Under the pieces are notes generated by a model, which searched no databases, had not been told where the DNA came from, and saw only the letters and a list, made by a program, of their open reading frames with translations. Positions 12,811 to 61,066 of a DNA stretch of 64,000 nucleotides are shown piece after piece. Numbering within the stretch: position 1 is the stretch's first letter; every line of letters starts with the position of its first letter. This DNA is from an uncultured Armatimonadetes bacterium (GTDB lineage Bacteria; Armatimonadota; Hebobacteria; Hebobacterales; Hebobacteraceae), in assembly GCA_963716175.1 (NCBI GenBank), contig OY970296.1:3296001-3360000 (forward strand). The letters are read 5' to 3'. A program made the translations under genes and the position numbers.

Positions 12811-13962
12811 ATGTACCAGGGCCGCGGCCCGTACGGCAGCCGGGCGAGGGGGGCCAGGCGGGGCGTCTGGCTGCTCCTGGCCGGCCTACTGATGGCGATG
12901 CTCTCACTGCCAGCCGGGGTCTCCGGCGCCAGCACCCGGGGTTGGGCCGCGGTGACGGGGTCTGTGGGCTGGTGGGACACCGACGTGCGCGGTCCCTTCA
13001 GGTCCTGCCGTATGATCCTGGCCTACAACAGTGGCGGCATGCCGCTGTGGACAGCCGATCGGTTCCGCTATTACGTTACTCATGTCGCCCCCAATGGCGC
13101 TCCCGACGGCTGGCTCTTCGACACGGTCCTGATGCTGGCGCTGGCCGCGGACTCCCAGCGCGGCTTCGAGCCAGGCTACGGCAATGGACCTTCCCGGGGC
13201 GAGGACTGGCGCTGGTATCTCGACCAGCGCCTCTTCGGCGGCAGCTCAGAGCTGGCCGAGTTGGAGCGGGCGGTGGCAGTCGCCGGCAAGGAGCTCGGCG
13301 ATCCGCGCCATGTGGTGCGGGTGGTGATTGCGGTGCCCTATCCCGATCCCAGGGCCACCGATTTCGGCGCCCTCGACGACGTGCCCCTCGATTTCAGCCG
13401 CACCGAGGATCGGGCAGCCGCAGTGAGATGGTATCTGCGAGGGGTGGCCCGACGCTGGACCGCAGGCCACTTCGAGCATCTGCGCTTGGGCGGGTTCTAC
13501 TGGCTGCGGGAGGAAGTGCCCGACAGCGACCGCGCCTTGCTCAAGCAGGTGTCCCGGCTGGTGGCCGGCCAGCTCGTGCCTTTCTACTGGATCCCGTACT
13601 ATGGCGGCAGCGGTTGGGACCAATGGCGGGAGCTGGGCTTCGACGTCGCCATCCAGCAGCCTAACTACTTCTTCTACCAGGTGCCTCCCGAGCGCCTGAA
13701 GGAGGCAGCCCACTTCGCCTGGGACCACCGCATGGGGGTGGAGATGGAGCTGGACCGCAGGGTGATGGAATCGGAGGAGCGGCGCAGCCGCTACCTCAGC
13801 TATCTCCGGGCTGGCGTGGACCAGGGATACCAGGAGGCCGGCACCCTCGCCTGGTACGACGACAGCGCCCTGCTGGAATGCGCCCGCTCCCAGGACCCGG
13901 CCGCCCGCCATCTCTATGACGCGACCTACGATTTCATCCGTGGCGTGTACCCCGGAGGCTAG
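12811..13962 (+). CDS. Exported DUF4855-family protein (putative glycoside hydrolase-like)
   Basis: Signal/TM segment; WLFD, GFYW, WIPY, QQPNYFF, GVEME motifs that I recognise from DUF4855. Confidence 0.7.
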   Translation: MYQGRGPYGSRARGARRGVWLLLAGLLMAMLSLPAGVSGASTRGWAAVTGSVGWWDTDVRGPFRSCRMILAYNSGGMPLWTADRFRYYVTHVAPNGAPDGWLFDTVLMLALAADSQRGFEPGYGNGPSRGEDWRWYLDQRLFGGSSELAELERAVAVAGKELGDPRHVVRVVIAVPYPDPRATDFGALDDVPLDFSRTEDRAAAVRWYLRGVARRWTAGHFEHLRLGGFYWLREEVPDSDRALLKQVSRLVAGQLVPFYWIPYYGGSGWDQWRELGFDVAIQQPNYFFYQVPPERLKEAAHFAWDHRMGVEMELDRRVMESEERRSRYLSYLRAGVDQGYQEAGTLAWYDDSALLECARSQDPAARHLYDATYDFIRGVYPGG

Positions 13963-14090
13963 AGCGCATTTCATAACCTACTTGCTGGCTGGCCGCACCA
14001 TGCCCTCGCATGAAATGCGCCTGCCACTGCCTGACGTTGTGCAGTGCTGTTTCATAACCTCCCCTGGGGAGGTTATGAAACAGCTTCTAG
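13959..14090 (+). mobile_element. Twin-palindrome element family A, copy 1 (132 bp, MITE-like)
   Basis: CTAG-AGCGCATTTCATAACCT...AGGTTATGAAACAGCTT-CTAG; near-identical copies at 17560, 36171 and 60831. Confidence 0.8.
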
Positions 14091-14248
14091 CGCTCCCAGC
14101 CCTGCCGCATTGCTCCCGGACCCGCCGGGGCCGCACCGCGAAAACCAGCTCCTGGCCGAGAGGGGGGCGCGGGATCGCGGCGAAGTCGCGTCCCGTTGAG
14201 TGATCGCGGTGATCCGTCCAATCTAACTCGGGAAGGGGGGTGTGCAAG

Positions 14249-14485
14249 GTGCAGATCACCTGCCCGAAGTGCAAGCAAGTGCAGGAGGCCGACAGCCGAA
14301 CCGCCACCTGTCCCAACTGCCGCACCGTGCTTCGGCGGTGCCTGGACTGCAGCAAGTACGACGTGCGCCTGTCCTTCTGCAAAGCCCTCAACAAGCCGGT
14401 CACCTCCGGCGAATCCCACTACCCTACCTACTCCTCGGCCAGCACCTACTGCCGCGAGTATCTGCCATCGGCGCCAGCCACCTGA
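14249..14485 (+). CDS. Small 8-Cys putative metal-binding protein (paralogue of 2689..2922)
   Basis: GGAAGGGGGG RBS then GTG; CPKC..CPNC..LRRCLDCSKYD..C..C. Confidence 0.75.
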   Translation: MQITCPKCKQVQEADSRTATCPNCRTVLRRCLDCSKYDVRLSFCKALNKPVTSGESHYPTYSSASTYCREYLPSAPAT

Positions 14486-14621
14486 TACCCATCTCCGGCC
14501 CCCGTTTGACCCGCGTGCGGCGGGGTATCATGAAAACGAGGCGTTACCACCGAGAGACGCAGGAATCGCGGCGAACGCTCTTGTTGGGTCATGTAGCAGG
14601 TCGTCTCTCGGAGGCCGGGAG

Positions 14622-15197
14622 ATGGCAGTAAAGGCGTTGCGCTGGAAAGAGGCCCGCCAGGCGCTGCAGGCCAGCGGCCTCGGAGTGGGCAGTTTGCTGG
14701 GGCTGCTCTGGCCCTTCGGCCGAGATCAGCGGGCGCGGGCCTTGCTGCGCGAGCGGCAGGCCGTGCTGGAAGCGAAGAACGCGGTAGTGGACTACCTGTT
14801 CCGGGCCCAGCGGGTGCTGGCCCCGTTCCGCCTGACCACCATGGAGCAGTTGCAGAAGGCGCTCCAGAACCCCGACAAGCGACAGCTCATCGCCTCCGTC
14901 GGCATCAACCGGGGGATGATGGAAGAGGCCCTCCATTCCCGCTACCATGCGGACGCGGGCAAGCCGCTGGACCGGGCCTTGGCCGAACTTCTGGCCGCAG
15001 GAGTGGTGCTGAAAGTGGCGCCGCTGTCCGGCCTTTCCCAGGAGATCTACGTGGCCGCGCAGGGGCGGCCCCGACCCGCCTTCGACCTCTCCGCTCTGAC
15101 CCGGCTACTGCAGGAAGGGCGAGACTACGGCAGTCAGCTCCGGGAGCGATACCGGCGGCAAGAGGCCACCGACAGAGGGCGCACCCATCGCATCTGA
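14622..15197 (+). CDS. Hypothetical protein
   Basis: ATG 14622 after GGAGG/GGGAG; protein-like composition; no recognised motif. Confidence 0.6.
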   Translation: MAVKALRWKEARQALQASGLGVGSLLGLLWPFGRDQRARALLRERQAVLEAKNAVVDYLFRAQRVLAPFRLTTMEQLQKALQNPDKRQLIASVGINRGMMEEALHSRYHADAGKPLDRALAELLAAGVVLKVAPLSGLSQEIYVAAQGRPRPAFDLSALTRLLQEGRDYGSQLRERYRRQEATDRGRTHRI

Positions 15198-15208
15198 GGC
15201 GCGCCGCG

Positions 15209-15628
15209 CTAGCGAGCCGTCGCAGGCCGCTTCGACTTCGGGGAGCCCTGCACGGCGCGCGTGCGCATGCCCGCCGCCCTGGTTGGCGAGGCCGGTTCCC
15301 GGTTGGCGCGTGGGATGAACACCAGCCGGCGCTCACCGTCTCGCACATAGCCCTCTCGCCGAGCTGCTCCCTCCAGGCCGGCCTCCGAGGCGAGGTGCCG
15401 CTTGTAGCTCTGCAGGCGCTCCTGCTCTGCCGCCAGAGTGGCCTTCTCCAGCCCCAATCGAGTGAGCTCTTCCTGCTTCCGCCGGGCCGCGGCCAGCGGG
15501 CCATAGAGCTTCACCAGCCCCACCAGCAGCACCAGCCCGACCAGGGCCACAAGCAGCCGCCGACCTACTCGCGGCCCTCGCCGCGATTTGCGCTGGGTGA
15601 AGCTAGACCGCCGACCACCCAAGCCCAT
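15209..15628 (-). CDS. FtsB/DivIC-like septum formation initiator
   Basis: Single TM helix, coiled coil, then EGAARREGYVRDGE motif; GGAGGAG RBS. Confidence 0.72.
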   Translation of the reverse strand: MGLGGRRSSFTQRKSRRGPRVGRRLLVALVGLVLLVGLVKLYGPLAAARRKQEELTRLGLEKATLAAEQERLQSYKRHLASEAGLEGAARREGYVRDGERRLVFIPRANREPASPTRAAGMRTRAVQGSPKSKRPATAR

Positions 15629-15790
15629 CGCCTCTCCTCCGATGTCATTCCGAGCGCAGCGAGGGATCCTGGCCCCGCCGTGCACGCCGGGCAGGGGCGG
15701 AAGCGGCTAGGTCCCATGGGCCGCCACCCCGGCCCGAAACGGGCCTGGAGGCTCCTGCCACCCTCAGCTCCGCCGCCACCGCAGCCCATG

Positions 15791-17242
15791 TCACAGCTTC
15801 GCGTGTCGGCCCACCACCTCTACCTTCAGCAGGTTGGTGTTGCCCGGCCCGGGCGGCACGCCGGCCGTCACTACCACCCGCTCGCCGGCCCGCACCAGGC
15901 CGGCCTGGCGCGCCCGCGCCACCGCGTTCACTATCAGCTCGTCGCTGTTGCGGCCCCGCGGCGCCAGCAGGGGGTGCACGCCCCAGACCAGGGTCAGCCG
16001 CCTGAGTGTTGCCACATCCGCGGTCACGGCTATTATCGGCGTCTCGGGCCGGTGCCGCGAGACCATGAGCGCAGTGTAGCCCGAGCTGGTTGCGGTGATG
16101 ATGGCGCGCGCGTTCACATCGCCCGCCAGGCTGCAGGCCGCCTCGCTGATGCCGCTCGCGATGCTCTCGCACGGCCAGGCGCGCGACTCGGTCAGCCGCT
16201 CCTGGAAGTCGGAGGCGGCCTCGGCGCGAGCGATGACATCGGACATCACCCGCACTGCTTCCGTTGGGTACTGGCCGGCAGCCGTCTCACCCGACAGCAT
16301 CACCCCGTCGCTGCCATCGAACACCGCGTTAGCGACATCGCTCACCTCCGCCCGCGTCGGTCGCGGGCTGCTGACCATGGACTCGAGCATCTGGGTGGCG
16401 GTGACCACGGGTCTGCCCACTCGCCGGCAGCGGGCGATGATCGCCTTCTGCAGCACTGGCACCTGGGCCAGCGGCAGCTCGATCCCCAGGTCTCCCCGCG
16501 CCACCATGATCCCATCCGCCGCCTCCACGATTTCGTCGAGGCGATCCACCGCCTCGTGTTTCTCTATCTTCGCCATCAGCCTTGGCGCCGGGCTCGCCCC
16601 CTTCAGCGCGCGGCGCAGCGGAGAGAGGTCGCTAGCCCTGCGTACGAAGGACATCGCCACCCAATCCACGCCGCGCGCGAGGCCGAACTTCAGGTCGGCG
16701 AGATCCTTGGCGGTCACTGTCCTGATGGGCAGCGCGGCGTCGGGTGCGTTGAGTCCCTGGTGGGACTTGAGCACACCTCCCGTCTGCACCCGGCACCGGA
16801 TCTCCGACCTGCTCGCCGACAGCACGCGCAGCTCGATGCTCCCGTCGGCCAACAGCAAGCGCTGGCCCGGCGCCACTGCCTTCGCCAGCTCGGGCACTGG
16901 CAGCGGCAGCCGGGAGGGAGAGGAAGAGGCGCTCTCGGTGACGCTCAGCACCAGTGGGGCGCCGGCCCGCAGTTCCACCATACCACCGGGCAGCTCGCCT
17001 ACGCGCAGCTTCGGCCCCGAGAGGTCCTGCAAGATGCCGATGGGACGGCCCACTTCCTCGGCCACCGAGCGCAGCAGAGCGATGGTTCGAGCATGGGTCT
17101 CGTGCGTGCCATAGGAGAAGTTCAGCCGCGCTACATCCATCCCCGCCCGCGCCAGCCGCCGGATCGCCGCGCCGGAGCTGGTCGCCGGCCCGATCGTACA
17201 TACGATCTTGGTGCGTCTTGGCAGCTCTCGCTTTGGTGGCAT
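15791..17242 (-). CDS. pyk: Pyruvate kinase
   Basis: RTKIVCTIGPAT, ARLNFS, AKIEK, MVARGDLG, ATQMLESM, MLSGETA. Confidence 0.97.
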   Translation of the reverse strand: MPPKRELPRRTKIVCTIGPATSSGAAIRRLARAGMDVARLNFSYGTHETHARTIALLRSVAEEVGRPIGILQDLSGPKLRVGELPGGMVELRAGAPLVLSVTESASSSPSRLPLPVPELAKAVAPGQRLLLADGSIELRVLSASRSEIRCRVQTGGVLKSHQGLNAPDAALPIRTVTAKDLADLKFGLARGVDWVAMSFVRRASDLSPLRRALKGASPAPRLMAKIEKHEAVDRLDEIVEAADGIMVARGDLGIELPLAQVPVLQKAIIARCRRVGRPVVTATQMLESMVSSPRPTRAEVSDVANAVFDGSDGVMLSGETAAGQYPTEAVRVMSDVIARAEAASDFQERLTESRAWPCESIASGISEAACSLAGDVNARAIITATSSGYTALMVSRHRPETPIIAVTADVATLRRLTLVWGVHPLLAPRGRNSDELIVNAVARARQAGLVRAGERVVVTAGVPPGPGNTNLLKVEVVGRHAKL

Positions 17243-17438
17243 CGCTTGCCCAGTGGTCGGTGCTTGGGACAGGTCGCGGACCTATCCTCTCGGGGGATTT
17301 ACCACATGGGGCAGATCGCGGCCAATCGCGCCTCTTCCCGCGCCCGGTGGCGACAAGAAGGGCGACGGTGGGGGAGGTGGACAGCGGCAGGCGGGGAAGC
17401 TCGTGCTTCGTAGCAAAGGACACTGCTCTGCTGAAGCT

Positions 17439-17563
17439 ATAGGGTTTCTTGCATTATGGTGACGCCAACCATAATGCAGGAAACGCTTCAGCGGAGAGCC
17501 TGACGCCTGCAAAGGCGATTCTCTTGCGTTACGGCTGTAATCGTAACGCAAGAGAATCTGTAG
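17439..17563. repeat. Twin-palindrome element family C (single copy), docked on A copy 2
   Basis: 17-bp-arm hairpins at 17444-17484 (one mismatch) and 17517-17558 (perfect), mutually related, bounded by TAG. Confidence 0.62.
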
Positions 17564-17691
17564 AAGCTGTTTCATAACCTTCCCAGGGGAGGTTATGAAA
17601 CAGCACTGCACAACGTCAGGCCGTGGCAGGCGCATTTCATGCGAGGGCGTGGTGCGGCCAGCCAGCCGGTAGGTTATGAAATGCGCTCTAG
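17560..17691 (-). mobile_element. Twin-palindrome element family A, copy 2
   Basis: Reverse-complement match to 13959..14090, same length. Confidence 0.8.
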
Positions 17692-17757
17692 CCAGTGCGG
17701 AGCGCAGGCTTCGCAATCTGGCAGAGCAGCAAAGCCCCTGCATCCCCAGGGAGGTGG

Positions 17758-18789
17758 ATGATGAGAGCCGCCATCTTTCCGACCCCGGAAGTGTGCGAGA
17801 TCGTGGAGCGGCAAACCCCGACGCCGCCCGAGTGGTACGTGGTGGTGCGAGTGGAGGCCTGCGGGGTTTGCGGCACCGATGTGCACATCTACCGCGGTGA
17901 GTTCCCGGCTCGCTTCCCCCTCATCCCCGGGCACGAGTTCGCCGGCGTGGTGGAGGATGTGGGGCAGGGAGTGGCCAGCCTGCGCCCCGGTCACCGTGTC
18001 GTCATTGACCCCAATATCAACTGCGGCTCCTGCCGGCCCTGCCAGCGCGGACTCACCCACCTCTGCCGCAACCTGGTCGCCTTCGGTGTGACGGCCGACG
18101 GCGGCTTCGCCACCCACTGCTCGGTTCCGGCCCGCCAGTGCTACAAGCTGCCGGCCGAGATGCCCTTCGAGGTGGCCGCCATGACCGAGCCCGTCGCCTG
18201 CTGTGTCCATGGGGTCGAGCGGGCGCAGATTCGGCCCGGCGAGGCGGTGGTCGTGATTGGGGCGGGCATGATCGGGCTGGTGATGCTCCAGTTAGCCCTG
18301 ATGCGCGGGGCCGCGGCCGTGATCGTCTCCGACCACGCGGCCGAGAAGCGGGAGCTGGCGATGCAGTTCGGGGCAACCCGGACCGTGAATCCCAAGACTG
18401 AGGATCTCGCCGAGGTGGTGATGAAGGCGACGGAGGAGTCGGGCGCCGATGTGGCGATTGACTGCGTGGGCGGAGTGGAAACCTCACAGCAGGCCGTGGC
18501 GCTGGTGGGAGAAGGCGGGCGGGCGCTGCTGTTCGGGGTGGCCCCGCAGAAGGCAGAGATAACCGTCAAGCCCTACCATATCTACGCCCACGAGATCACC
18601 ATCACGGGCAGCTTCATCAATCCGTTCACTCACGGAGCTGCGCTGTCGCTGCTGGCCGCCGGGCGGATCAAGGTGGCGGAGATCATCAGCCACCGCCTGG
18701 GTCTGGACGAGCTGCCTCGCGCCTTCGAGCTACTGGAGGCGCGGCAGGCCAGCAAGATCGTCATCCTGCCCCAGCGCACCCAGGAGTGA
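17758..18789 (+). CDS. Zinc-dependent medium-chain alcohol/polyol dehydrogenase
   Basis: CGTD, GHEFAG, CxxCxxC...C structural Zn site, GAGMIG. Confidence 0.93.
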   Translation: MMRAAIFPTPEVCEIVERQTPTPPEWYVVVRVEACGVCGTDVHIYRGEFPARFPLIPGHEFAGVVEDVGQGVASLRPGHRVVIDPNINCGSCRPCQRGLTHLCRNLVAFGVTADGGFATHCSVPARQCYKLPAEMPFEVAAMTEPVACCVHGVERAQIRPGEAVVVIGAGMIGLVMLQLALMRGAAAVIVSDHAAEKRELAMQFGATRTVNPKTEDLAEVVMKATEESGADVAIDCVGGVETSQQAVALVGEGGRALLFGVAPQKAEITVKPYHIYAHEITITGSFINPFTHGAALSLLAAGRIKVAEIISHRLGLDELPRAFELLEARQASKIVILPQRTQE

Positions 18790-18861
18790 TCGCCGCCCCC
18801 CGAGCAGAATAACGCCTTGGTCTTCGCGCGCCGTGCCGTGGGCCGGCGCCCGGGAAGCGGA

Positions 18862-19398
18862 ATGGGTTCCCAAGAATTCATCGCCATGCTCGAGCGGCTG
18901 TTCAAGGCCTTCATCTTCGTGCCTTGCATGGCCTTGATCGCCTGGTGGCTGTTCAGCGCCTGGCTCGACCACACCCTGACCCTGGGCGAGGCCGCGGCCG
19001 GTATCGTGCTGCTGGCGGGCGCCTTCTTGCTCGGGGTGATCTCGATCGTCTCTGGAGGCTGGGGTTTCCTCGGCATTCTCGCGCTGATCTATGTGCTGCT
19101 GCTGGCGCTGGTGGTGTGGGAGTATGTCTACTGGCGCCGCCGCGAGCGGGAGCACTGGCGGGATCAGATCGAGAGATATCAGGAAGCCATCGCCCGCGAT
19201 CCCCTGAACGCCGCCGCCTACTCTTTCCTGGGCCACACGCACCTCGCGCTGGGAAGCATTGACGAGGCGGTGTCCGCCTTGGAGCAGGCGCTGGCGCTAG
19301 ACCCGCGCTCCGACAAGGATCGGCGCCTGCTGCGGCGCGCGCGGGAGCTTCAGGAGCGCATCCTTTCGCGACGGCGCCGCCCACCCCGCGGCGCCTAG
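18862..19398 (+). CDS. Membrane protein with C-terminal TPR
   Basis: Three hydrophobic segments followed by DPLNAAAYSFLG..ALALDP. Confidence 0.75.
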   Translation: MGSQEFIAMLERLFKAFIFVPCMALIAWWLFSAWLDHTLTLGEAAAGIVLLAGAFLLGVISIVSGGWGFLGILALIYVLLLALVVWEYVYWRRREREHWRDQIERYQEAIARDPLNAAAYSFLGHTHLALGSIDEAVSALEQALALDPRSDKDRRLLRRARELQERILSRRRRPPRGA

Positions 19399-19402
19399 CT
19401 CC

Positions 19403-20086
19403 TCACCTCGGACGCCTGGGGCAGACCGCCATGCACAGCCCGCAGATGGTGGACTCGATGCCCCGATCCGCCGCTCGTGCCAGGGCCGCGCGCCGGCAAG
19501 CATGGGCATCGTAGAACTCCTCCCGCGGGCGCCCCGCCCACCACAGCTCGCCGCTGACCGCGCCTCCGGGGCAGATATCCGTGCAGGCCGTGCAATCCCC
19601 ACACTCACTCTCAACTACGGGTGTCCCCACTGCCAGGGGCGCGTCGGTCAGCAGGCTGGTGAGCCGCAGCGCCGGCCCCAGCTCCGGGGTCACCAGCAAG
19701 GCCGACTTGCCGATCCAGCCCAGGCCGGCCCGAGTGGCCGCCATCTTGTGCGAGAAGGGCGCCGCCAGGGTCGCCGGATCTATCTCGCCCAGAGTCGCCG
19801 GATTGGCTCTCCCTCGGTACCCGGCCTCCGCGATCACGCCTGCGAGCTGGCCCGCGATCTCGTCCAGCCTGCGGTTGAAGTCGAGGTACTCCTGGTAGTA
19901 AGCTGGGCTGGGCATCGCCTCCAGGTCCGCCAAGGCCGCGGCTGAATGAGCGATTACGATCACCACCGCCCGCGGCAGCTCCGCCAGCCCGGCGAGATCG
20001 GCGAAGCCGACGAGCGACGCCCCGGCGGCGAGGGCGCAGCAGCGCAGGCAATCAGTAAGCTCCCCATCGGGTCGCGTGGGCGCCAC
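19403..20086 (-). CDS. Epoxyqueuosine reductase (QueG)-like Fe-S protein
   Basis: SHKMAATRAGLGWIGK, CxxCxxCxxxCP and CGLCMAVCP. Confidence 0.82.
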   Translation of the reverse strand: MAPTRPDGELTDCLRCCALAAGASLVGFADLAGLAELPRAVVIVIAHSAAALADLEAMPSPAYYQEYLDFNRRLDEIAGQLAGVIAEAGYRGRANPATLGEIDPATLAAPFSHKMAATRAGLGWIGKSALLVTPELGPALRLTSLLTDAPLAVGTPVVESECGDCTACTDICPGGAVSGELWWAGRPREEFYDAHACRRAALARAADRGIESTICGLCMAVCPRRPR

Positions 20087-20087
20087 T

Positions 20088-20642
20088 CTACTTCACCTGG
20101 ATCTCGTCTCGCGAGGGAGCAGCTTCCTCCGGCGGCATCAGCATTCCCGGAAGCAAAGATCGCCGCAGTGTCACATAGACTTTGATCCCCGGCTCCCGGT
20201 CCTGGGTCTCTATCCCCAGGTCGTGTTTCGCCAGCCTGACTGTTGACGCCATTTCGAGGTCAAGTTGGAACAGCCCCTTCGGGTCCATCCAGACCGCGCG
20301 AAAGACATCCACGAGCTTGTCTTTCTCCTGCTGCTGGACCCAGGCCGGCGCGCCCTTGGTCATCAGCTTCCACCCTTTGGGTTCGAGCTGCTTCTGGTAG
20401 AAGTAGAACACCGACAGCGACGGGTAATCCTCATTCAGCTTGAACCAGTACTTGCGTAAGCTCATGTTCGGCGAGGTCTGCTCCTCCGCGCCCTCCGTGC
20501 CCGGATAGTGGATCAGCTCCGGCTCGGTCGTCACACGCTGCGCCGCCCGGCCGCGCTGCCATCTGGCCAGCCCGGCCATCAGCACGATCCAGCCGACCAG
20601 CACCACGCCCAATACTATCAGCAGTTCCTTACGCAGGTTCAC
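20088..20642 (-). CDS. Hypothetical membrane-anchored protein
   Basis: N-terminal TM helix; tightly coupled to flanking genes. Confidence 0.65.
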   Translation of the reverse strand: MNLRKELLIVLGVVLVGWIVLMAGLARWQRGRAAQRVTTEPELIHYPGTEGAEEQTSPNMSLRKYWFKLNEDYPSLSVFYFYQKQLEPKGWKLMTKGAPAWVQQQEKDKLVDVFRAVWMDPKGLFQLDLEMASTVRLAKHDLGIETQDREPGIKVYVTLRRSLLPGMLMPPEEAAPSRDEIQVK

Positions 20643-21427
20643 CTTGAGTCAGCTCCCTTTTCGCGGTTCTGCCTTAGCTGCTCCTTGCGACGGCGGGCGT
20701 GGGCACGCCCGCCCTGCACCACGGCCGCGGGGCGCTGGCGCAGCGAGCGCGCTCCCGCAACCACAAAGATCACTCCCAGCCCCAGCAGGAAGGCCCCGCA
20801 CACCACATAGATACCCCGCAGCACACCCGCGGAAAAGAGGGTGCGGCCGAAGGCCAGCGCCACCGACACCGCGCAGTACCAGACCACATCAGAGAGAATG
20901 TGGCCGACGAAGTAGGTTCCACCCCCCACCGGGCCCCGCTGGCTCGCCCAGCCCACGTGGGCCACCCCGATGGTCGCCCACCACAGCCACCAATAGGGAT
21001 TCGCCATGCTCATCAGCCCGCCGAGGAAGGCGAGTTGGAGCACGAGCCCAGGCATGGGCAGACCGGTGCCGGAAGCAGCGGCTGCGCCCCCTGCTTGCAG
21101 CGCCGCGGCCGCACTCTCTCCCGGAATCTGAACCGTCAGATACCCGAGGTAGAGGAGCACCAGCCCTCCAACCACGCCGATCGTCCCGCGCACCCGCGGC
21201 GAGCGCGCGAACTTGATCAGACCGGTGATCAACAGGATCACCGCGATCAACTCCAGCGCCCCGTGCCCGATCATCATCAACGGCCCCGCCAGCCAGCCGA
21301 CCCGCACCGACTCGGTCACCACCACCGCCAGCAGCGAGCCGGGCACCACGGCCCCGGAGAAGCCAGTCGCCAGCGCGACTGCGAAGATGGCGGGAAGCGC
21401 AATGCTTCTTGGCAAGGTAGCGTTCAT
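20639..21427 (-). CDS. LysE-family translocator
   Basis: SGAVVPG..GH..E, NPYWWLWW, GHILSD; multiple TM helices. Confidence 0.82.
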   Translation of the reverse strand: MNATLPRSIALPAIFAVALATGFSGAVVPGSLLAVVVTESVRVGWLAGPLMMIGHGALELIAVILLITGLIKFARSPRVRGTIGVVGGLVLLYLGYLTVQIPGESAAAALQAGGAAAASGTGLPMPGLVLQLAFLGGLMSMANPYWWLWWATIGVAHVGWASQRGPVGGGTYFVGHILSDVVWYCAVSVALAFGRTLFSAGVLRGIYVVCGAFLLGLGVIFVVAGARSLRQRPAAVVQGGRAHARRRKEQLRQNREKGADSR

Positions 21428-22542
21428 TCCTGGATTAGCTCCAGGTTGGCGCGCGGCGCCCGCACTTCCTCGCCGCCGTCCAGCTCGATCAACGCGATGC
21501 GGACGCGCGACTCGGTGTCAATTTCGGTGAGCTCGGAGGGAAGCGCGGTGACTCGGCCCAGAGCCCCGAAATGCGGCTCCCGGATCACCCGCACGCGGGC
21601 GCCGATGACCAGCATCTGCGCGGGCGGCGCCTCCGGTGCGCCGGCGCCCACCACCTCCCGGGTGACGATGATCTCGGGGCGGATCACCCCGGCCCGGATC
21701 TGGGTGGCGCCGTCAATGGAGGCGAGCTGACCCTCCAACGAGGACAGCAGCTCCCAGGTGTGCCTGGCCATGGGCAGCTCGCCGAACCCCTCGGTGATGA
21801 TCAGGGTCATGGGCACGGCTTCCTGGCCTGTGATCGCCACGCCAATATCGTACCCAACGTATTGGCGCAGCACCTCATCGCTCACCGCCCCGACCACCAG
21901 TCCGACCGCGCCCGCCCCAGCGGCAGCGGTGATGGCCGCTGCCTCCGCGCTCGCCCCCGCGATCAACACGCAGCCCTCGCAGTCCGCGATTGACTCCGCG
22001 CGCAGCGGCTGGTCCGGGCCCTGGGTGGCCACCCGCAGCCGGCCCCTGCGCTCGCCCCCGACCCCGAAGATGCCCTGCACCAGTGCCCCCCGGGCTTCGA
22101 TCACCGCCCCCTCTTCGGCGATCACCTCGACCACCCGGCCGGCGATGTGGGCCAGCACCTCGATGCTCCTGGGTGGCTCTCGCAGGCGAACGAAGCCGGA
22201 GGCCGTGCTCACCTCCTCCACCGTCCCGGCGACCGGTGAGCGCACCTCGTTCTTGAACAGCCCCCACAGCCCCTGGGTGCGAGCGATCACCTCACCTGGC
22301 TGCACTGCGTCGCCGGGGTGCTTCAGCAGATAGGACTCCAGCTCATAGGGCTCGACGTGCAGCATCTGCGCCGCCCGCATCACCTGCACGTTGCCCGGCC
22401 GCTGGGCCCGCGCCACCGCCGCCTCCGCGGACACCAAATCGCCCATGCCCGCCAACACCTGGCCCCGCATCGGCAGCCGCCGGGTCTGGCGCACTATGGT
22501 GTCCGCGGCCACCCGCAGCCCTGGGGTATAGGCCACCGGCAT
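21424..22542 (-). CDS. Conserved hypothetical protein partnered with the GlmL-like gene
   Basis: AYTPGL start, lipoyl/barrel-sandwich-like repeats, QGIFGVGGE, GATQIRAGVIRPE, KOW-like C-terminus. Confidence 0.75.
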   Translation of the reverse strand: MPVAYTPGLRVAADTIVRQTRRLPMRGQVLAGMGDLVSAEAAVARAQRPGNVQVMRAAQMLHVEPYELESYLLKHPGDAVQPGEVIARTQGLWGLFKNEVRSPVAGTVEEVSTASGFVRLREPPRSIEVLAHIAGRVVEVIAEEGAVIEARGALVQGIFGVGGERRGRLRVATQGPDQPLRAESIADCEGCVLIAGASAEAAAITAAAGAGAVGLVVGAVSDEVLRQYVGYDIGVAITGQEAVPMTLIITEGFGELPMARHTWELLSSLEGQLASIDGATQIRAGVIRPEIIVTREVVGAGAPEAPPAQMLVIGARVRVIREPHFGALGRVTALPSELTEIDTESRVRIALIELDGGEEVRAPRANLELIQE

Positions 22543-22544
22543 CG

Positions 22545-24326
22545 CTAGCTTACTCCTGGCATCGCGCCCGCCGCGCGCAGCCACTGCTCCAGCTTGGCCA
22601 GGCGCTGCTGATCGTCGGCCGGCAGCTCCAGCGGCCGGCCCCGCCCATCGAGGATGATCCCGACCACGCCCCCGTCCACCACACCGGTCCACCGGTGGCC
22701 CCGCCCCGCGCCCACATCCAGCCCCCGTCTGGGATGCAGGGTCGCCTCGCGCTTCTCGCCGAGCGGGAGAGCGAGCCGCCGCAGCTCCCCACCGCGCAGC
22801 TCGCCCCGATCATCTCCGATCTCCCATGCCAGCACCACCTCGCCCTCGCGGCCCCGGCCCGCCGGCGCGATCACGGTCCCCAGTGGGATCAAGCAATCCC
22901 GCCGGAATACCTCCATCGCCGCCTCCGGCAGCACCGAGGCCAGCACCCCGAGCTGAGGCATCATGAAGATAGAATCAACCGCCAGCTTGGTGACGCCCTG
23001 GGGCTCGAAGGCATCCACCATCATCAGCGCGGCCTGCTCCCGGCGCGGGGCGTGGGAGAGAATGCCGCCGCTGCCGATGATCAGCCGGAGCGACATCATG
23101 TCCACCAGACTGGCGCCGCCCGCGGTCTGGGAGAAGATGTCGGCGATGGTCCGCGCTTGCTGCACGCCTTTGAGGCCCGAGGCCAGCGCCCCATGGTGGG
23201 CCAGCGCCAAGCGCAGTGCCTCCCTGGCCACCGCTTGCTCCAGGAGCAGGTCGCCCATAGCTTGCGGGATGGTGGTGGGACGGATCATCTTGTTGCGCAG
23301 CCGGTTGCGCAGATCGGCCTCGGCCATGGGGAGCGGAAGCCAGCGCCGGATGCCAGCCGCGCCCGCCTCCGCCAATACGTTGCATACACTGTAGCTGAGG
23401 CCGAGGTTCGCGGACACGGTGCGGTTGAACTGATCCCCGAAGACCGAGAAGACATCGGTGGTGGCCCCGCCGATATCCACGGCCAGCACATCCGCGCCCT
23501 CCTGCTGGGCCGCGAGCTGGACCATCTCGCCCACCGCGCGGGGCGTGGACATCACCGGGGCGCTGGTCCAGGTCAGCAGCTTGTCATATCCGGGCGCCTG
23601 GGCCATCACATGCTCCAGGAACAGGCGGTGGATCGCCTCCCGAGAGGGCGCCAGGTTCTCCCGCTCGAGCTGGGGCCGAAGGTTGTCCACCACCAGCAGC
23701 TCCAGCCCGTCTCCGAGCACCTGCCGCACGCCCTCCCGCGCGGCGCTGTTGCCGGCGTAGATCACCGGGAGCTTGAACCCCCGGCCCAACCGGGGCCGGG
23801 GATCGGCCGCCACCAGCAGCTCCGCGGTGTCCAGCAGGTGCTGCACCGTCCCGCCCTCGGTGCCTCCGGACATCAGGATCATGTCCGGCCGGATGGCGCG
23901 GATGCGGGCGATGCGCTCGTGGTCGGCGCGGCCGTCGTCCACCGCGATCACGTCTATCACGATCGCACCCGCCCCCAGCGCCGCGCGTTGTGCCGACTCC
24001 GCGGTCATGGTCTTGACCACGCCAGTGACCAGCATCTGCAGGCCGCCGCCGGCGCTGGAGGTGGAGAGGTAGAGGTCAGCCCCCAGCCCGTTCCGGGAGG
24101 GGGTGGAGACGCGATCCTCCCCCAGGAAGCGGCGCCCGGTCAGCTCCTCCAGCTCGCCGACCGCGTTGCGCACCCCCACGGTGACGTCGTCGAAGGGCGC
24201 CTCCACGGTCGTGGGGGCCTCACCCCGCCCCAGCAGGCGATACCCCGTTTCTCCGCGCTCGATCAGGATCGCCTTCGTGGTGGTGGAACCGCAGTCGGTG
24301 GCGACAATGCGTGCGGCCTCAGCCAT
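22545..24326 (-). CDS. GlmL/MutL-like ASKHA ATPase (glutamate mutase L family)
   Basis: DCGSTTTK, SSAGGGL, GGTEGG, VDIGGATTDVFS, RTVSANLG. Confidence 0.85.
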   Translation of the reverse strand: MAEAARIVATDCGSTTTKAILIERGETGYRLLGRGEAPTTVEAPFDDVTVGVRNAVGELEELTGRRFLGEDRVSTPSRNGLGADLYLSTSSAGGGLQMLVTGVVKTMTAESAQRAALGAGAIVIDVIAVDDGRADHERIARIRAIRPDMILMSGGTEGGTVQHLLDTAELLVAADPRPRLGRGFKLPVIYAGNSAAREGVRQVLGDGLELLVVDNLRPQLERENLAPSREAIHRLFLEHVMAQAPGYDKLLTWTSAPVMSTPRAVGEMVQLAAQQEGADVLAVDIGGATTDVFSVFGDQFNRTVSANLGLSYSVCNVLAEAGAAGIRRWLPLPMAEADLRNRLRNKMIRPTTIPQAMGDLLLEQAVAREALRLALAHHGALASGLKGVQQARTIADIFSQTAGGASLVDMMSLRLIIGSGGILSHAPRREQAALMMVDAFEPQGVTKLAVDSIFMMPQLGVLASVLPEAAMEVFRRDCLIPLGTVIAPAGRGREGEVVLAWEIGDDRGELRGGELRRLALPLGEKREATLHPRRGLDVGAGRGHRWTGVVDGGVVGIILDGRGRPLELPADDQQRLAKLEQWLRAAGAMPGVS

Positions 24327-24335
24327 AGCGGCGGC

Positions 24336-24365
24336 ATGATAGCACGCGCTCTTCGCGGGGGTCAA
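24336..24365 (-). promoter_or_regulatory. Sigma70-type promoter of the glmL-like operon (near-leaderless)
   Basis: TTGACC-N18-TATCAT with TG extension; -10 ends 9 nt before ATG 24326; no SD. Confidence 0.55.
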
Positions 24366-24440
24366 CGAAGGAGCGATCCCGGGACGCGGCGGCCGCACGG
24401 GCGGCAGGAGAAACGCGCCCGGGCGCCAAACAGTGCCGCC

Positions 24441-25334: not shown

Positions 25335-25370
25335 CGTCTGGTGCGCCGAGTGCTATCATACTGATAGCAC
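25331..25370 (+). promoter_or_regulatory. TA-operon promoter with operator palindrome
   Basis: TTGACG-N17-TATCAT overlapped by GTGCTATCA-tac-TGATAGCAC. Confidence 0.75.
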
Positions 25371-25385
25371 AGCAGGAGGAACGCG

Positions 25386-25622
25386 ATGCCGGACGTGCTG
25401 ATCCGCGATCTGCCCAAGAAGACCCTGGAAGCGCTGAAACAGAGAGCCGCCCGACACGGCCGCTCGCTTCAGCAGGAGCTGAAGGTGACGCTCGTGCGCC
25501 TGGGGGAAGAGCCAGACTTCGACTACGTCGAGCACGTGAGGATGCTTCGCGAGCGGATCGAGAGTTACGCGCCCCAGCAGAGTGACTCAACGCTCTTGAT
25601 CCGTGAGGATCGGGGGCGGTGA
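25386..25622 (+). CDS. FitA-like ribbon-helix-helix antitoxin
   Basis: VLIRDL...LKQRAARHGRSLQQE...LIREDR; directly upstream of a PIN toxin. Confidence 0.85.
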   Translation: MPDVLIRDLPKKTLEALKQRAARHGRSLQQELKVTLVRLGEEPDFDYVEHVRMLRERIESYAPQQSDSTLLIREDRGR

Positions 25623-26056: not shown

Positions 26057-26063
26057 AACTGCC

Positions 26064-47732: not shown

Positions 47733-47761
47733 GACAAGGAACGCTTCTGGCGTTCCTTGTC
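47733..47761. terminator. Hairpin after barrel paralogue 1
   Basis: GACAAGGAACGC-ttctg-GCGTTCCTTGTC, 12-bp stem; no clear U tract. Confidence 0.45.
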
Positions 47762-49106: not shown

Positions 49107-49150
49107 GCCTCACGCCTGCTCTCGCGGTCCTCGCGGCCGCTGCTGAGATT

Positions 49151-49180
49151 GACAGGGGACGGCTCCAGCCGTCCCCTGTC
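49151..49180. terminator. Hairpin after barrel paralogue 2
   Basis: GACAGGGGACGGCT-cc-AGCCGTCCCCTGTC. Confidence 0.5.
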
Positions 49181-49521
49181 CGCATTTCCCTCCTGATGCA
49201 TCGGGCCGGGGCCTCTCCGGTGGGCGCTCAGCGGACTGAGGGGCAGCCGCCTTGGTGGGGGGTGCCGCGAGCTGGCGGGAGCCGCGCCGCTCTCTCCACC
49301 CCGGACTTGCGGTGAAGACTGCAGGTGAGGTATAAGGGCACGGCGAACAGGCGGCCTCGGCCAGGTCGCGGCAGGAAAAGGAGGTGAGTCGCAGGCCCGA
49401 CAGCGAGTGAACGGGACGCAGAGGCAGTTGCCTGCTGACAGGGGCTCCGGCTCCGGTTGTGCTCTCGCCACCGCTGCGGTGGATGGGTCAGAGTCGCCCA
49501 CAGGGAAAGGACAAAAGCAAG

Positions 49522-50418
49522 ATGACCAACAGAAGCTGGTTGCTTGCCGTGCTTGCCGTATGTTTGATCGCGCTTTGCAGTGAAGCTGGATTCGCCATCC
49601 CGTCCCTGGGCGGGCCGACGGGAATCGCCACCCTGCCCAACGCGGCCATCGCGCCCATGAAGGTGGTGGACACCGCCCTCACCTATCAGAAGGCCAGAGT
49701 GAGCAACCTGGTGGCCAGCTCGAGCATGTACGGCGGCCCCACCACGCTGGTGCGAAAGAGCGAGGATCTCAGAGTGTGGTCCTTGCAGGCCCTGACCGGG
49801 GTCACGGATGAGGCGGAACTCTGGGCAGCCTACTCCACGGTCAGGGATGCTACGGACTCGCACGTCTGGGGCATCGGCGGCAAGATGCTCCTACCCCGGC
49901 TCATCAGGCTGCCGGGGACCTCGCTGGCCGTCGGCGCCAGCTACCAAGACTGGGTGGGCGCGGTCGCGGAGGTGGGGGTCACCGGGGGCGGCCCGGCTCT
50001 CCTGGTGGCCGACCAGAAAGTAACGAAGGCCTATCTGGTCGCTACCAGGGACCTGAGCCAGCCCAAGGGCGAAACCCCGCGGTCGGGTCCGCGGCCCGGC
50101 ACTCACCTGCTTGGAAGCGCGGGTCTGCTCTACATGCGGGTGGCGCCAGGTATCGGTGACAGCGATACCGTGATCCGGCCCTTCTTCGGCCTGGAAATCA
50201 AGGGCGAGGACGGAGCCGAGCTTGGTCTCGAGTATCGCTGGAGAGATGACCATGTTGATAGCAAGGCCGTGACCTCTGCCTTCCTGCGCTATCGGTTCAG
50301 CTCTGAGTCCACCATCGAGATCGGCACCAGCAACGCCGGGCCCACGGGTACCGGCCTGGACGACCGCAAGCCGTTCATCCGGGTGGGCTACTCCATCCCC
50401 ATCGCCGCCCTGTACTAA
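49522..50418 (+). CDS. Outer-membrane beta-barrel-like protein, paralogue 3
   Basis: IPSLGGPTGI, AELWAAYS, VWGIGGK, KAYLVAT, GLEYRW, RVGYS shared with paralogues 1 and 2. Confidence 0.7.
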   Translation: MTNRSWLLAVLAVCLIALCSEAGFAIPSLGGPTGIATLPNAAIAPMKVVDTALTYQKARVSNLVASSSMYGGPTTLVRKSEDLRVWSLQALTGVTDEAELWAAYSTVRDATDSHVWGIGGKMLLPRLIRLPGTSLAVGASYQDWVGAVAEVGVTGGGPALLVADQKVTKAYLVATRDLSQPKGETPRSGPRPGTHLLGSAGLLYMRVAPGIGDSDTVIRPFFGLEIKGEDGAELGLEYRWRDDHVDSKAVTSAFLRYRFSSESTIEIGTSNAGPTGTGLDDRKPFIRVGYSIPIAALY

Positions 50419-50518
50419 AGAGCTTCGCCGAATGGAGTAACACAGCGAAGCTCAAGAAGCGGCCCAGACAGACACAGGGGGATGTTCGCACATTGCTTCG
50501 TTGTGCGAACATCATTAG
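50415..50518 (+). mobile_element. Twin-palindrome element family B, copy 2 (104 bp)
   Basis: CTAA..GAGCTTCGC..GCGAAGCTC..GATGTTCGCACA..TGTGCGAACATC..TTAG; left end includes the stop codon of paralogue 3. Confidence 0.75.
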
Positions 50519-50722: not shown

Positions 50723-51739
50723 ATGGCTGACGGGACCACACGGGGCTTTCAACTATCGCCCGTGGATCTGACCGACCTGTACCCACGACTTGGTGACCTC
50801 CTGGCCCGGGTGGAGGTGAAGACTGAGCGCGTCTGGGCGCAGGAGCCGGGCTTCCTCGCCGACGCTGCTCGCGATCTGCTCTCAGGGAGAGGCAAGCGCC
50901 TGCGGCCCACCCTGTTGCTGCTCGCCGCGGAATGCGCCGGCGGCGCCACCGACAGCAGCATTGCTATAGCCAGCATGATCGAGGTGGTGCACGCCGCTTC
51001 GCTGGTCCACGACGATGTGATAGATGACGCCCCCTCCCGCCGCGGGCGCCGCTCGGCGAAGGTGGTCTGGGGGAACAAGGTCTCGGTGCTGCTGGGCGAT
51101 TACCTGATCGCCCGCGCCTTCAGCTTGCTCGAGCGCGAGGACAGCCACTGCCTGATCGGGCCTCTCTGCGATGTCGCCGCCCGCATGTGCGGCGGACAGG
51201 TGGGCGAGCTCCGGGCCGCGGGCCGGCGCGCGACCGAGCCCCAGTACCTGGAGATTGTACGAGACAAGACCGCCAGCCTCTTCGGCTTCTGCGGGCAGGC
51301 CGGGGTGCAGACCGCGCAGGGGCCGCCGGCGCTGGCTCGGGCCCTGGGTCTGTTCGGTGAGAGCTTCGGGGTGGCGTTCCAGGTGGCCGACGACATCCTC
51401 GACCTGGTGGGCAGCAACGGGCGCTCCGGAAAGCCCGAGGGGCGAGACCTGGCGGAGCGGAAGTGGACCCTGCCCCTGATCCGCGCCTACGAGCGCGGCA
51501 CGGAGGAAGAGCGCGCCCGGCTGGGGGAGCTGCTGGGGGCCGACCAGGTTTCGGCCCGGGAGGTGGAGCTGGTGAGGGAGATGGCCCGCGCCGCCGGGGC
51601 CATTGACTACGCCTGGCATCGGGTGGAAGACTGGCTGCGGAAGGCGCGAGAGCAGCTTGCTCTGGTCCCGGACAGCGGAGCCAAGCAAGCGCTGCTGGTG
51701 CTGGCGGGAGAGCGCTTTCCGCTGCCGGTCATGACCTGA
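50723..51739 (+). CDS. Polyprenyl diphosphate synthase
   Basis: GKRLRP, SLVHDDVID, RRG, GDYL, KTASL, FQVADDILD. Confidence 0.93.
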   Translation: MADGTTRGFQLSPVDLTDLYPRLGDLLARVEVKTERVWAQEPGFLADAARDLLSGRGKRLRPTLLLLAAECAGGATDSSIAIASMIEVVHAASLVHDDVIDDAPSRRGRRSAKVVWGNKVSVLLGDYLIARAFSLLEREDSHCLIGPLCDVAARMCGGQVGELRAAGRRATEPQYLEIVRDKTASLFGFCGQAGVQTAQGPPALARALGLFGESFGVAFQVADDILDLVGSNGRSGKPEGRDLAERKWTLPLIRAYERGTEEERARLGELLGADQVSAREVELVREMARAAGAIDYAWHRVEDWLRKAREQLALVPDSGAKQALLVLAGERFPLPVMT

Positions 51740-54798: not shown

Positions 54799-54974
54799 GG
54801 GCTGCGATTCGTAAGGCAGCAGCAAGTCTCCTGCCCTGATGCAGCGCGTACGCCCGCCCTACAGTTGCCATCCGCGCTCATCTGTGTTCATCTGCGGTTG
54901 GATTGCGGTGTCTTTGCGCTCGGCCTCTCTCCTATGTTAGAATACGCCCCACCAAGTTCCGGAGGTATGCGACG

Positions 54975-59066: not shown

Positions 59067-59099
59067 GCCGCGCTGATAAGACGCCGATAGACACAGCAA

Positions 59100-59155
59100 C
59101 TGTACGGCGGGCATTCCCATGCCCGCCAGGCGGGCGTAGGCACGCCCGCTCTACA
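59100..59155. repeat. REP doublet, GTAG type
   Basis: CTGTACGGCGGGCATTCCCATGCCCGCC followed by an inverted copy ending CTACA; related copies at 6817, 42599, 54297, 54853 and 62138. Confidence 0.65.
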
Positions 59156-59444: not shown

Positions 59445-59564
59445 GGAGAGGACACAACTGCAGATGGAGGCAGATGAACGCAGATAGGGGAGCAAGGGAC
59501 AGAACCCCAGAGTCGGGCGGAAGGTCCGGCCCAACCTGGACGCGGCAGAACGGGGGCGACGGCC

Positions 59565-60626
59565 TTGGCGGCTGAGGCGCTCATTCAGGTGCGCGGGGTC
59601 TCGATCACGCTGGGCGAGTTCGCCGTCCGCGACGCATGCCTGGCGGTGGAGGCCGGGGAGTATTTCGTGCTGCTGGGGCCCACCGGGGCGGGGAAGACCG
59701 TGCTGCTGGAGTGCATCGCGGGGCTGCACCGGCCCCATCAGGGCGAGATCCTGGTGGCGGGACGGCGGGTGAACGAGGTGCCGCCAGAGCAGCGGGGGCT
59801 GGGCTATCTGCCGCAGGACTACGCCCTCTTCCCGCACCTCGACGTGGCCCAGAACATCGGCTTCGGCATGCGCCTGCGCCGGAAGACGCGAGCAGAGATC
59901 AGCCGGCGGGTGCAGGAGCTGGCCGAGCTGCTGGGCATCACGCATCTGCTCGCCCGCTCACCGGTGCATCTCAGCGGAGGCGAGAAGCAGCGGGCGGCGC
60001 TGGCCCGGGCGCTGGCCATCGAGCCCCAGGTGCTGCTGCTCGACGAACCCCTGAGCGCGCTCGACGAGCAGACGCGGGAGGCGCTGTGCGTGGAGCTGCG
60101 CCGCGTGCACGCGCAGCTTCGCACTACCACCGTGCACGTCTCGCACAACTTCGAGGAAACTCTGGCGGTGGCCGACCGCATCGGGGTCATCCACCAGGGG
60201 CGGATTCAGCAGGTGGGCACTCCGGAGGAGGTGTTCCATCGGCCGGCCTCCGAGTTCGTGGCCCGCTTCGTGCGATCCGAGAACATCCTGCGGGGCCGGG
60301 CCCAGCGAGGGGCCGATGGCGTGCTGGTGAGCGTAGGCCTGGTGAATCTGAAGGCCGCGGACGGACCGGAGGGCGATGTCTTCCTCACCGTGAGGCCGGA
60401 GGATGTGGAGGTGACAACGCCGATGCCTGATCGCCCCAACACGGTCACCGGCCCCATCGTGAGCATCGTGGATCGGGGGCCGCTGGTGCGGGTGGATATC
60501 AACGGCGGAGTGAGCATGACGGCGCTGGTGACGAGGCGGACCTGGCAGGCCGAAGGGTTCCGGGTGGGGGAGGTGGTGAGCGCGCACTTCGAGCCGGGGG
60601 CGGCGCACGTACTCAGGGCGGACTGA
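59565..60626 (+). CDS. Second molybdate/tungstate ABC ATPase (WtpC/ModC-like)
   Basis: GPTGAGKT, LSGGEKQR, LLDEP, TOBE-like C-terminus. Confidence 0.85.
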   Translation: MAAEALIQVRGVSITLGEFAVRDACLAVEAGEYFVLLGPTGAGKTVLLECIAGLHRPHQGEILVAGRRVNEVPPEQRGLGYLPQDYALFPHLDVAQNIGFGMRLRRKTRAEISRRVQELAELLGITHLLARSPVHLSGGEKQRAALARALAIEPQVLLLDEPLSALDEQTREALCVELRRVHAQLRTTTVHVSHNFEETLAVADRIGVIHQGRIQQVGTPEEVFHRPASEFVARFVRSENILRGRAQRGADGVLVSVGLVNLKAADGPEGDVFLTVRPEDVEVTTPMPDRPNTVTGPIVSIVDRGPLVRVDINGGVSMTALVTRRTWQAEGFRVGEVVSAHFEPGAAHVLRAD

Positions 60627-60830
60627 GCAACGTCGCGATTTGCGCGCGTCTTGGGCGGGACGCCGCTTGACAGGCGACCACACTGTGAGTCAGCATCGTG
60701 CCCTAGGGACACGCCCGGCGGAGGCGGACAAGCCCGCCCGCGTGCGGGCGTCGTTCGCGGAGTGGCCGGGCCCTTCGGGCCGCCATGGCGGTCGGCTCTG
60801 CCGACCCAGCCACATCCGGGCCCCGCGGGC

Positions 60831-60966
60831 CTAGAGCGCATTTCATAACCTACCTGCTGGGTGGCCGCGCCACGCCCTCGCATGAAATGCGCCTGCCACC
60901 GCCTGACGTTGTGCGGTGCTGTTTCATAGCCTCCCCTCCCTGGGAGGGTTATGAAACAGCTTCTAG
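60831..60966 (+). mobile_element. Twin-palindrome element family A, copy 5 (136 bp)
   Basis: CTAG...CTAG; matches copy 1 with 4 extra bases in the second hairpin loop. Confidence 0.8.
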
Positions 60967-61066
60967 GGAGCTTCGCCGAATGAAGTAACACGGCGAAGCT
61001 CAAGAAGCGGCCCAGACAGGCACAGGGCGATGTTCGCACATTACTTCGTTGTGCGAACATCATTAG
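60963..61066 (+). mobile_element. Twin-palindrome element family B, copy 3 (104 bp)
   Basis: Shares CTAG 60963-60966 with A copy 5; near-identical to 50415..50518; ends TTAG at the galT RBS. Confidence 0.78.

Follow-up and report, generated by a model that had tools for sequence, protein, structure and literature searches.

The question raised by this locus is whether the short palindromic repeats of a 64,000-nucleotide stretch of DNA from an uncultured Armatimonadetes bacterium (contig OY970296.1, positions 3,296,001 to 3,360,000; hereafter the window) belong to a mobile system that has not been described before. Three element families of dissimilar sequence, named A, B and C, adjoin one another there at TA dinucleotides, and the first-pass annotation of the window had proposed them as an undescribed system of non-autonomous units with palindromic ends, mobilised in trans by related enzymes and using each other's ends as targets. 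With a probability of about 0.8, the elements are MITEs (non-coding miniature inverted-repeat transposable elements) moved in trans by DDE transposases of at least two unrelated superfamilies. They are MITEs of a known kind, TA-duplicating, CTAG-seeking and orphaned in this genome; what is unusual is that fold-back ends are common to MITEs of two unrelated transposase superfamilies and that the matching transposase is absent from a single-contig genome.

The genome that carries the window (G000) is a single 4.56-Mb contig of 66% GC with a marker-gene completeness of 90.85%. All nine elements listed in the first-pass annotation (A, B, C and a deleted A of 49 bp) were recovered at their coordinates, and the genome-wide BLASTN count that it had proposed returned 57 near-full-length copies of A, 56 of B and 2 of C. 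De novo clustering added further families of the same design, D (C-like) and E, F and G (B-like), and B was divided into two subfamilies, B1 and B2, which are 75% identical; the window copy at 26456 belongs to B2. With one representative sequence per subfamily, 137 full-length copies were counted in eight subfamilies (A 57, B1 35, B2 21, E 10, F 5, D 4, G 3 and C 2). Their size of about 100-136 bp, their non-coding character and their dispersal, nearly all 137 copies being intergenic, are those of MITEs. The outer 20-27 bases of both ends match in every subfamily, as terminal inverted repeats should. From either end each subfamily reads TA, 0-3 bases, a terminal repeat of about 20-27 bases and then the outer 11-19 bases of this repeat once more, inverted. 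The common architecture of TA, hairpin, spacer of 25-32 bp, hairpin and TA holds for every unit, and the four-fold core motifs noticed at first are real, each outer arm recurring as an inner inverted arm. Shorter forms also occur: one copy consists of hairpin 1 alone, and in six others, the 49-bp "mini-A" forms, deletion between the two TTTCATAACCT repeats has brought the left and right repeats together. A mini-A was found in another genus too. Outside the window, at C1:4172603-4172790, a chimeric element was observed with a left part of B1 and a right part of E joined inside their similar hairpins, which suggests recombination or template switching between subfamilies.

The flanking dinucleotide was TA on the left of 108 of 120 copies and on the right of 101 of 120, the remainder being mostly TG or CA. 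The base outside each TA varied independently of the other flank and the base inside was fixed for each family. Three sets of filled and empty paralogues, for A, B1 and E, revealed the conversion of one TA into two. The E copy at 1332758 lies in one of two Rhs-like paralogues, with an empty site reading G-TA-G and a filled site carrying TA on both sides; the B1 copy at 1041584 lies in a repeat with four identical empty paralogues reading C-TA-G; and the A copies at 1763092 and 1765948 lie in a repeat resembling repetitive extragenic palindromic (REP) sequences, of which two empty paralogues read C-TA-G. Empty sites carrying a single CTAG or TA, as looked for on the advice of the first-pass annotation, thus exist in paralogues as CTAG or GTAG, and the mobility of these units with palindromic ends was borne out by the duplication. 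The inferred target was CTAG in 65 of the 88 copies with both sides free. A duplication of 4 bp (IS5-like) or of 6 bp, the length made by IS481-like elements, was rejected, the outer bases differing between the flanks and the B1 and E filled sites not fitting. These borders would be produced if DDE transposases acting in trans cut with a 2-bp stagger at TA, preferably inside CTAG, so that TA is duplicated. Orthologous DNA was also compared. A and the C+A pair are missing from the orthologous intergenic spaces of a 76%-identical syntenic contig (L057), of which the intergenic DNA is too diverged for the exact insertion site to be read, and the sites are occupied in a 98.3%-identical contig (L056). 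No joint skipping an element was found over window positions 13001-33000 in the contigs of four public runs, which break at repeats.

Candidate parents of the elements were found in relatives. A scan of 301 genomes for the A-type end pattern returned an inverted pair 850 bp apart in a genome of a sister genus (G008). This pair bounds an 846-bp TA-flanked element with two overlapping open reading frames (ORFs), which matched DUF4096 (99.6 bits), DDE_Tnp_1 (72.8 bits) and NF033580, the "IS5 family transposase" model (133.8 bits, cut-off 110). Its terminal repeats have TAGA and TTTCATAACC in common with both A ends and match them at 16 of 22 positions; the TTTCATAACC core was the search pattern of the scan, so that its share of the match is by construction. 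Independent support for this putative parent is provided by where the two matches lie: they are inverted and occupy the extreme ends of an element that is TA-flanked, codes for a transposase and comes from the same taxonomic family. Two-ORF frameshifted IS5 elements of this type are what we take to be the IS427/IS1031 groups of ISfinder, with duplications of 2-4 bp, and the IS5 family prefers CTAG-like targets. The other IS5-family loci of the taxonomic family were rejected as parents of A for want of a TA-flanked repeat pair.

IS630-family genes occur in 89 of the 301 genomes of the phylum, and TA-flanked terminal repeats were extracted from 18 IS630 elements of relatives. One of them, in a genome of another sister genus (L045 in G010), is 1113 bp long and TA-flanked and encodes a protein scoring 107.9 bits with the IS630 model NF033545 (cut-off 100). 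Compared with its terminal repeats, the ends of C and D agree at 15-17 of 22 positions, at least 17 being reached in 2 of 300 shuffle rounds. A and B ends compared with the same 18 elements gave nothing above the shuffle range, the best value for B being 14 of 22. Terminal repeats shared with an autonomous insertion sequence were therefore seen for A (IS5 family) and for C/D (IS630 family) and not for the B superfamily, which places A among IS5-family derivatives and C/D among IS630/Tc1-mariner derivatives. For B, ends lying 2 kb apart at G005:C446 turned out to be two MITEs around a housekeeping gene, and a scan of the genome collection with a 15-base B motif was swamped by chance matches. 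On the strength of their ends, A would thus derive from an IS5-family element and C/D from an IS630-family element, two unrelated transposase superfamilies with a common TA/CTAG target. The idea of mobilisation by related enzymes is accordingly not supported, A ends fitting one superfamily and C ends the other, and neither is that of an undescribed system, two of the three families being ordinary MITE derivatives with ends of insertion-sequence type, an outcome that the first-pass annotation had itself named as refuting novelty.

The feature that sets these MITEs apart is their fold-back. As single-stranded DNA, every full element forms two separate hairpins, with z-scores of -8.5 for A, -5.1 for B1, -4.8 for B2 and -10.0 for C, and none of 200 shuffles folded equally well; for the degenerate 49-bp mini-A, folding was not significant (z -0.98). 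The two hairpins stand in inverted orientation, their loop sequences being reverse complements of each other. Over five genera, the two A hairpins have hardly changed in any of their arms, while strong divergence is seen in the loops and the spacer. In the B hairpins, 4 of 23 predicted pairs have changes on both sides that preserve pairing, and the "loop" AANGAAGTAAY of the B superfamily is kept between subfamilies while the stems differ and covary; a terminal repeat of about 27 bp may be read here, with this loop as its inner half. Fold-back beside the terminal repeat is absent from both parent insertion sequences (G008 and G010) and is therefore specific to the MITEs; a plain MITE of 111 bp, which has ends of A type and lacks clear hairpins, was also seen in G008. 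In the proposed mechanism, the inner inverted copy of the outer 11-19 bases gives rise to the two end hairpins and the four core copies, and these would most likely serve as extra transposase binding sites or as a 3' hairpin for neighbouring genes in either orientation.

The second of these roles leads to an explanation in which a host function at the RNA level is the main reason for keeping the hairpins: they would stabilise 3' ends or act as terminators just behind stop codons, and the elements would persist as exapted regulatory modules, with mobility as no more than their origin. By crude gene calls, 34 of 120 copies have a flanking TA inside a predicted stop codon, nearly all copies being intergenic; a hairpin within a few bases of either end allows both orientations to serve, and MITEs of two transposase superfamilies arrived at one design. 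The position at stop codons is also accounted for by the target: elements start with G or A after TA, so that insertion into a stop codon restores TAG or TAA and many copies come to lie exactly at gene ends. Moreover, the hairpins of the window elements are not followed by a T-run, selection for competence in transposition explains the conservation of the arms equally well, and the Rfam comparison advised by the first-pass annotation gave no family at gathering thresholds in the whole window, the sub-threshold overlaps being at chance level. We consider this explanation very unlikely.

Several observations weigh against an origin of the elements by DDE transposases acting in trans, among them the absence of such enzymes from the genome. 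G000 gave no match to DDE_3 (PF13358), DDE_Tnp_1 (PF01609), DDE_Tnp_1_2 (PF13586), DUF4096 (PF13340) or NF033580; with the IS630 model NF033545 no match passed the cut-off, and this model touched only helix-turn-helix parts of other proteins, which by eye are rve-type integrases; and tblastn of the IS630 ORFs of relatives found nothing. A cognate transposase in the same genome, one of the marks by which MITEs are assigned, was thus not found in G000. Among the assemblies searched, all five A-holding genomes (G000, G002, G004, G009 and G011) were without either transposase type, and BLAST with A found nothing in those sister genomes in which the transposases occur. No parent of the B superfamily was found among the 18 IS630 elements, the TA duplication of both parent elements is deduced from single copies, no empty site was found for family C itself, and the filled and empty E sites disagree at the base 5' of the left TA. 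Finally, the inner arms are conserved like the outer arms across genera in A and covary in B, and an ordinary MITE needs no such thing. Concerning the mutual exclusion of A and transposases, most of the assemblies are fragmentary and repeats assemble poorly, which makes it weak evidence at the level of genomes; G000 and G011 are single contigs. The mariner model PF01359 was blank in G000 as well, an uninformative result as it was silent in every control genome, and viral contigs had no match to the elements.

The distribution of A is consistent with a past activity. Four further genera of the family carry it, at 75-80% identity to the window copy and, for three of these genera, with dozens of matches, and the copies of G000 average 96% identity to their own consensus, from which we infer that A may have been active after the genera split and then silent in G000. 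Since the matching transposase is no longer in the genome, the G000 copies are probably fossils. B-type and E-type elements were found in G011, G005 and another Armatimonadota genome.

The lack of transposases invites the proposal that one undescribed enzyme, still encoded, recognises hairpin or cruciform ends whatever their sequence and moves all families. It would account for the architecture common to three unrelated sequence superfamilies, for the A-bearing genomes that hold neither IS630 nor IS5 transposases, and for the covariation of B stems beside the invariance of A inner arms. We nevertheless regard it as quite unlikely. The ends of A and of C agree with plain terminal repeats that belong to IS5- and IS630-family elements, and the copies lie about 4-5% off consensus with 10-16% of their flanking TAs decayed, which fits inactivity. 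Long copies enclosing a transposase or recombinase, which the first-pass annotation had suggested to look for, did not emerge: pairs of ends at distances of up to 5 kb were listed and four gene-sized intervals among them translated, and these proved to hold ordinary genes (methyltransferase-like, prepilin-type and oxidoreductase-like genes, a large repeat protein and a degraded tyrosine-recombinase fragment), with no recombinase candidate among the genes so flanked by A, B or C ends. Fragments or paralogues of this tyrosine-recombinase gene were observed at C1:179695-180019 and in nine other places, one degraded copy lying between two inverted A copies. Within the window itself, the first-pass statement that it contains no transposase was upheld, no transposase or recombinase model match falling inside it. 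The multi-copy insertion sequences of G000, by eye of IS110 and IS256 type, were set aside, their ends being unrelated to A, B and C.

A further proposal supposes that fold-back ends are required for the spread or persistence of MITEs in this Armatimonadota lineage, whichever transposase made them. The hairpin-dependent step could then involve a four-site transposase complex, a host factor or an intermediate that is single-stranded or cruciform, and an enzyme still unrecognised in the genomes without a matching transposase may take part. Such a requirement would explain the convergence of IS5- and IS630-derived MITEs on two hairpins and a spacer of 25-32 bp, a design not seen in the two parents or in the plain MITE of G008; we hold it to be possible and rather unlikely.

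Tyrosine transposases of the HUH Y1 type, associated with REP sequences (REP-associated tyrosine transposases, RAYTs), were considered as well. In this explanation the elements would be doublets like the REP doublets forming hairpins (REPINs) or bacterial interspersed mosaic elements (BIMEs), moved by these enzymes on single-stranded hairpins. Two inverted palindromic units with a linker do resemble BIMEs and REPINs, G000 encodes five Y1_Tnp (RAYT-like) genes, and family A occurs in long runs of a single orientation: "+" in 16 of 17 copies between 0 and 1.45 Mb and "-" in 11 of 13 between 1.5 and 2.65 Mb, followed by mixed orientations. This orientation tracks neither GC skew (p from 0.007 to 0.18 according to window size) nor the local majority of gene strand (p 0.29-0.79) robustly. 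None of the five Y1 genes is flanked by A, B or C; four are flanked by GTAG-GGCGGGC REPs and the fifth (L001) by another hairpin repeat. REPs carry a GTAG-type tag, flank their own RAYT gene and make no target duplication, and to our knowledge HUH elements are not expected to make a TA duplication. The duplicated TA at the filled and empty sites thus largely refutes the proposal, the ends match terminal repeats of DDE-type insertion sequences, and neither the flanking of a Y1 gene nor the lack of duplication, by which REPs and REPINs are recognised, was found for the elements. We therefore judge it extremely unlikely. As separate observations, the four Y1 genes with GTAG-tagged REPs at their flanks (L002-L005) code for 180-198 aa; REPs of this family, in which a GGCGGGCA... 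palindrome comes after the GTAG tag, are frequent in the genome and lie in the window at 6812-6844, 54845-54875, 59095-59130 and 62135-62170; and the A orientation switches near a change of gene-strand bias that may mark the replication origin.

The docking of the elements follows from their target rule. In the window, three junctions between families had been noticed (C+A at 17560, B+A at 26556 and A+B at 60963), and each pair does hold a single TA in common. Genome-wide, 18 adjoining pairs among the 137 copies have one TA, or its decayed form, in common, in agreement with the claim that the elements use each other's flanks as targets; several further junctions involve mini or truncated copies, and an E+A junction is present in another metagenome-assembled genome. 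CTAG is about four-fold depleted in the genome, with 3,688 occurrences for 14,288 expected from base composition. In the proposed mechanism, each insertion into this rare target would leave the element bordered on both sides by TA-containing sites, mostly YTAR, at an intergenic and harmless position; with targets so duplicated, new insertions would land beside old ones with one TA in common. The flanks of the elements make up about 6% of the non-coding YTAR sites, and the 18 junctions compare with about 8 expected under even use of YTAR (binomial p 0.0015). Regenerated targets account for much of the docking and a two-fold excess stays, which could reflect the neutrality of such sites or a preference for such DNA. 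All four combinations of A and B ends were seen among the junctions. Pairs of the same subfamily were 0 of 18, for a chance of 27% per pair from copy numbers (p ~0.004), and their absence could plausibly come from direct or palindromic doublets being unstable and getting lost.

This last result also bears on a conservative route by serine recombinase, in which the elements would be excised as circles and integrated by crossover at a central TA. Seven Resolvase-domain genes are present in G000, five of them of 516-592 aa, joined ends would make a palindromic site around TA, and duplication and conservative exchange are indistinguishable by sequence alone. Docking, however, is never homotypic and a half-site model predicts the opposite; the target is merely CTAG-like and bears no resemblance to the element ends, which in A and C match the IS5 and IS630 terminal repeats. 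We judge this route, too, extremely unlikely.

The individual window elements illustrate these rules. Family A is represented by full copies at 13959-14090 (+ strand, 132 bp), in which the left TA makes the TAG stop of a 404-aa ORF at 12748-13962; at 17560-17691 (- strand), the right end of which adjoins C via a single common TA; at 36171-36302 (+ strand), where the right flanking TA has decayed to CA; and at 60831-60966 (+ strand, 136 bp), in which hairpin 2 carries a 4-bp insertion. The family C element at 17439-17563 (+ strand, 125 bp) is one of the two genome copies and has its right TA in common with the A element that follows. Family B comprises the B2 copy at 26456-26559 (- strand, 104 bp), where TA and the first base of the element form the TAA stop of an ORF at 26064-26459, and the B1 copies at 50415-50518 (+ strand, 104 bp), with the left TA within a predicted stop codon, and 60963-61066 (+ strand, 104 bp), which adjoins the right end of A via a single common TA. 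The degenerate mini-A at 26556-26604 (+ strand, 49 bp), made of the left and right A terminal repeats fused by internal deletion, adjoins the B2 copy with one TA between them.

Other repeats were noticed around these elements. Just left of the family C copy, at about 17400-17437, lies a small hairpin repeat (GCTCGTGCTTCGTAGC...) with about 10 genome copies. A repeat of about 185 bp, unrelated to A, B and C and with 5 genome copies, is found at window positions 25483-25667 and 51502-51657. Positions 46758-50408 are taken up by three paralogous segments in tandem, each about 1.4 kb long and with identities of 61-82%, which probably represent a triplicated gene. Outside the window, a 2.1-kb segment is duplicated at 99% identity at genome positions C1:2802847-2804960 and 4504641-4506755; one of its boundaries is a TA in common with a B1 copy, part of it resembles the gene beside window positions 14247-14460, and a clear transposase ORF was not seen in it.

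The named parents of two of the three families make the candidate "new system" testable. The pile-up of different repeat families at the same spots can be understood by a rare CTAG target that every insertion duplicates, and for the annotation of Armatimonadota these families account for many "conserved hairpins" after genes. Should the fold-back be needed for movement, or be tolerated for serving neighbouring genes, it would bear on the domestication of bacterial MITEs and REP-like elements. A literature search, which was not aimed at the phylum, found no account of Armatimonadota repeats.

Among known systems, BIMEs and REPINs are similar to the elements in their two inverted palindromic units with a short linker, their intergenic location and the presence of several sequence families per genome, and differ in that the elements described here duplicate TA. 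Palindromic elements derived from IS200/IS605 have subterminal hairpins in direct orientation on one strand and make no duplication; they were rejected as a model, the hairpins being here inverted and TA duplicated. The plant Stowaway and Tourist MITEs, of Tc1/mariner-type and PIF/Harbinger (IS5-related) origin and with TA or TAA targets, are comparable in that two MITE superfamilies coexist in one genome; they are eukaryotic and imply no twin end hairpins. With the two-ORF IS5 elements of the NF033580 type, family A has its ends in common, but A is 132 bp long, non-coding and provided with an inner inverted copy. As for IS630/Tc1/mariner elements, the IS630-family copies of relatives sit in C-TA-G and the family C ends match one of them, whereas the elements of G000 are non-coding and none of the 18 IS630 elements examined is matched by A or B.

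In vitro, ISY100 was reported to insert almost exclusively into TA, which is duplicated (PMC2170065). The RUP repeats of pneumococcus, attributed to IS630-Spn1, are non-coding, measure about 107 bp and are present in about 100 intergenic copies; they are like the elements described here in their IS630-type terminal repeats, their insertion at TA and their tendency to land in or beside other mobile elements (PMC2229807). The partner insertion sequence of RUP is present in the same genome, whereas G000 is without a partner. The Correia (NEMIS) elements of Neisseria are similar in their length (107-155 bp), their 24-bp terminal inverted repeats with terminal TA, their target duplication and their alignable filled and empty sites; they differ by a site for integration host factor (IHF) and an action on neighbouring transcripts, and the sections of the source devoted to them describe no fold-back of the terminal repeat (PMC2229807). 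In the same source, where transcripts of bacterial MITEs are treated, these are described as long stem-loops, and there is no description of two separate end hairpins such as characterise the present elements (PMC2229807).

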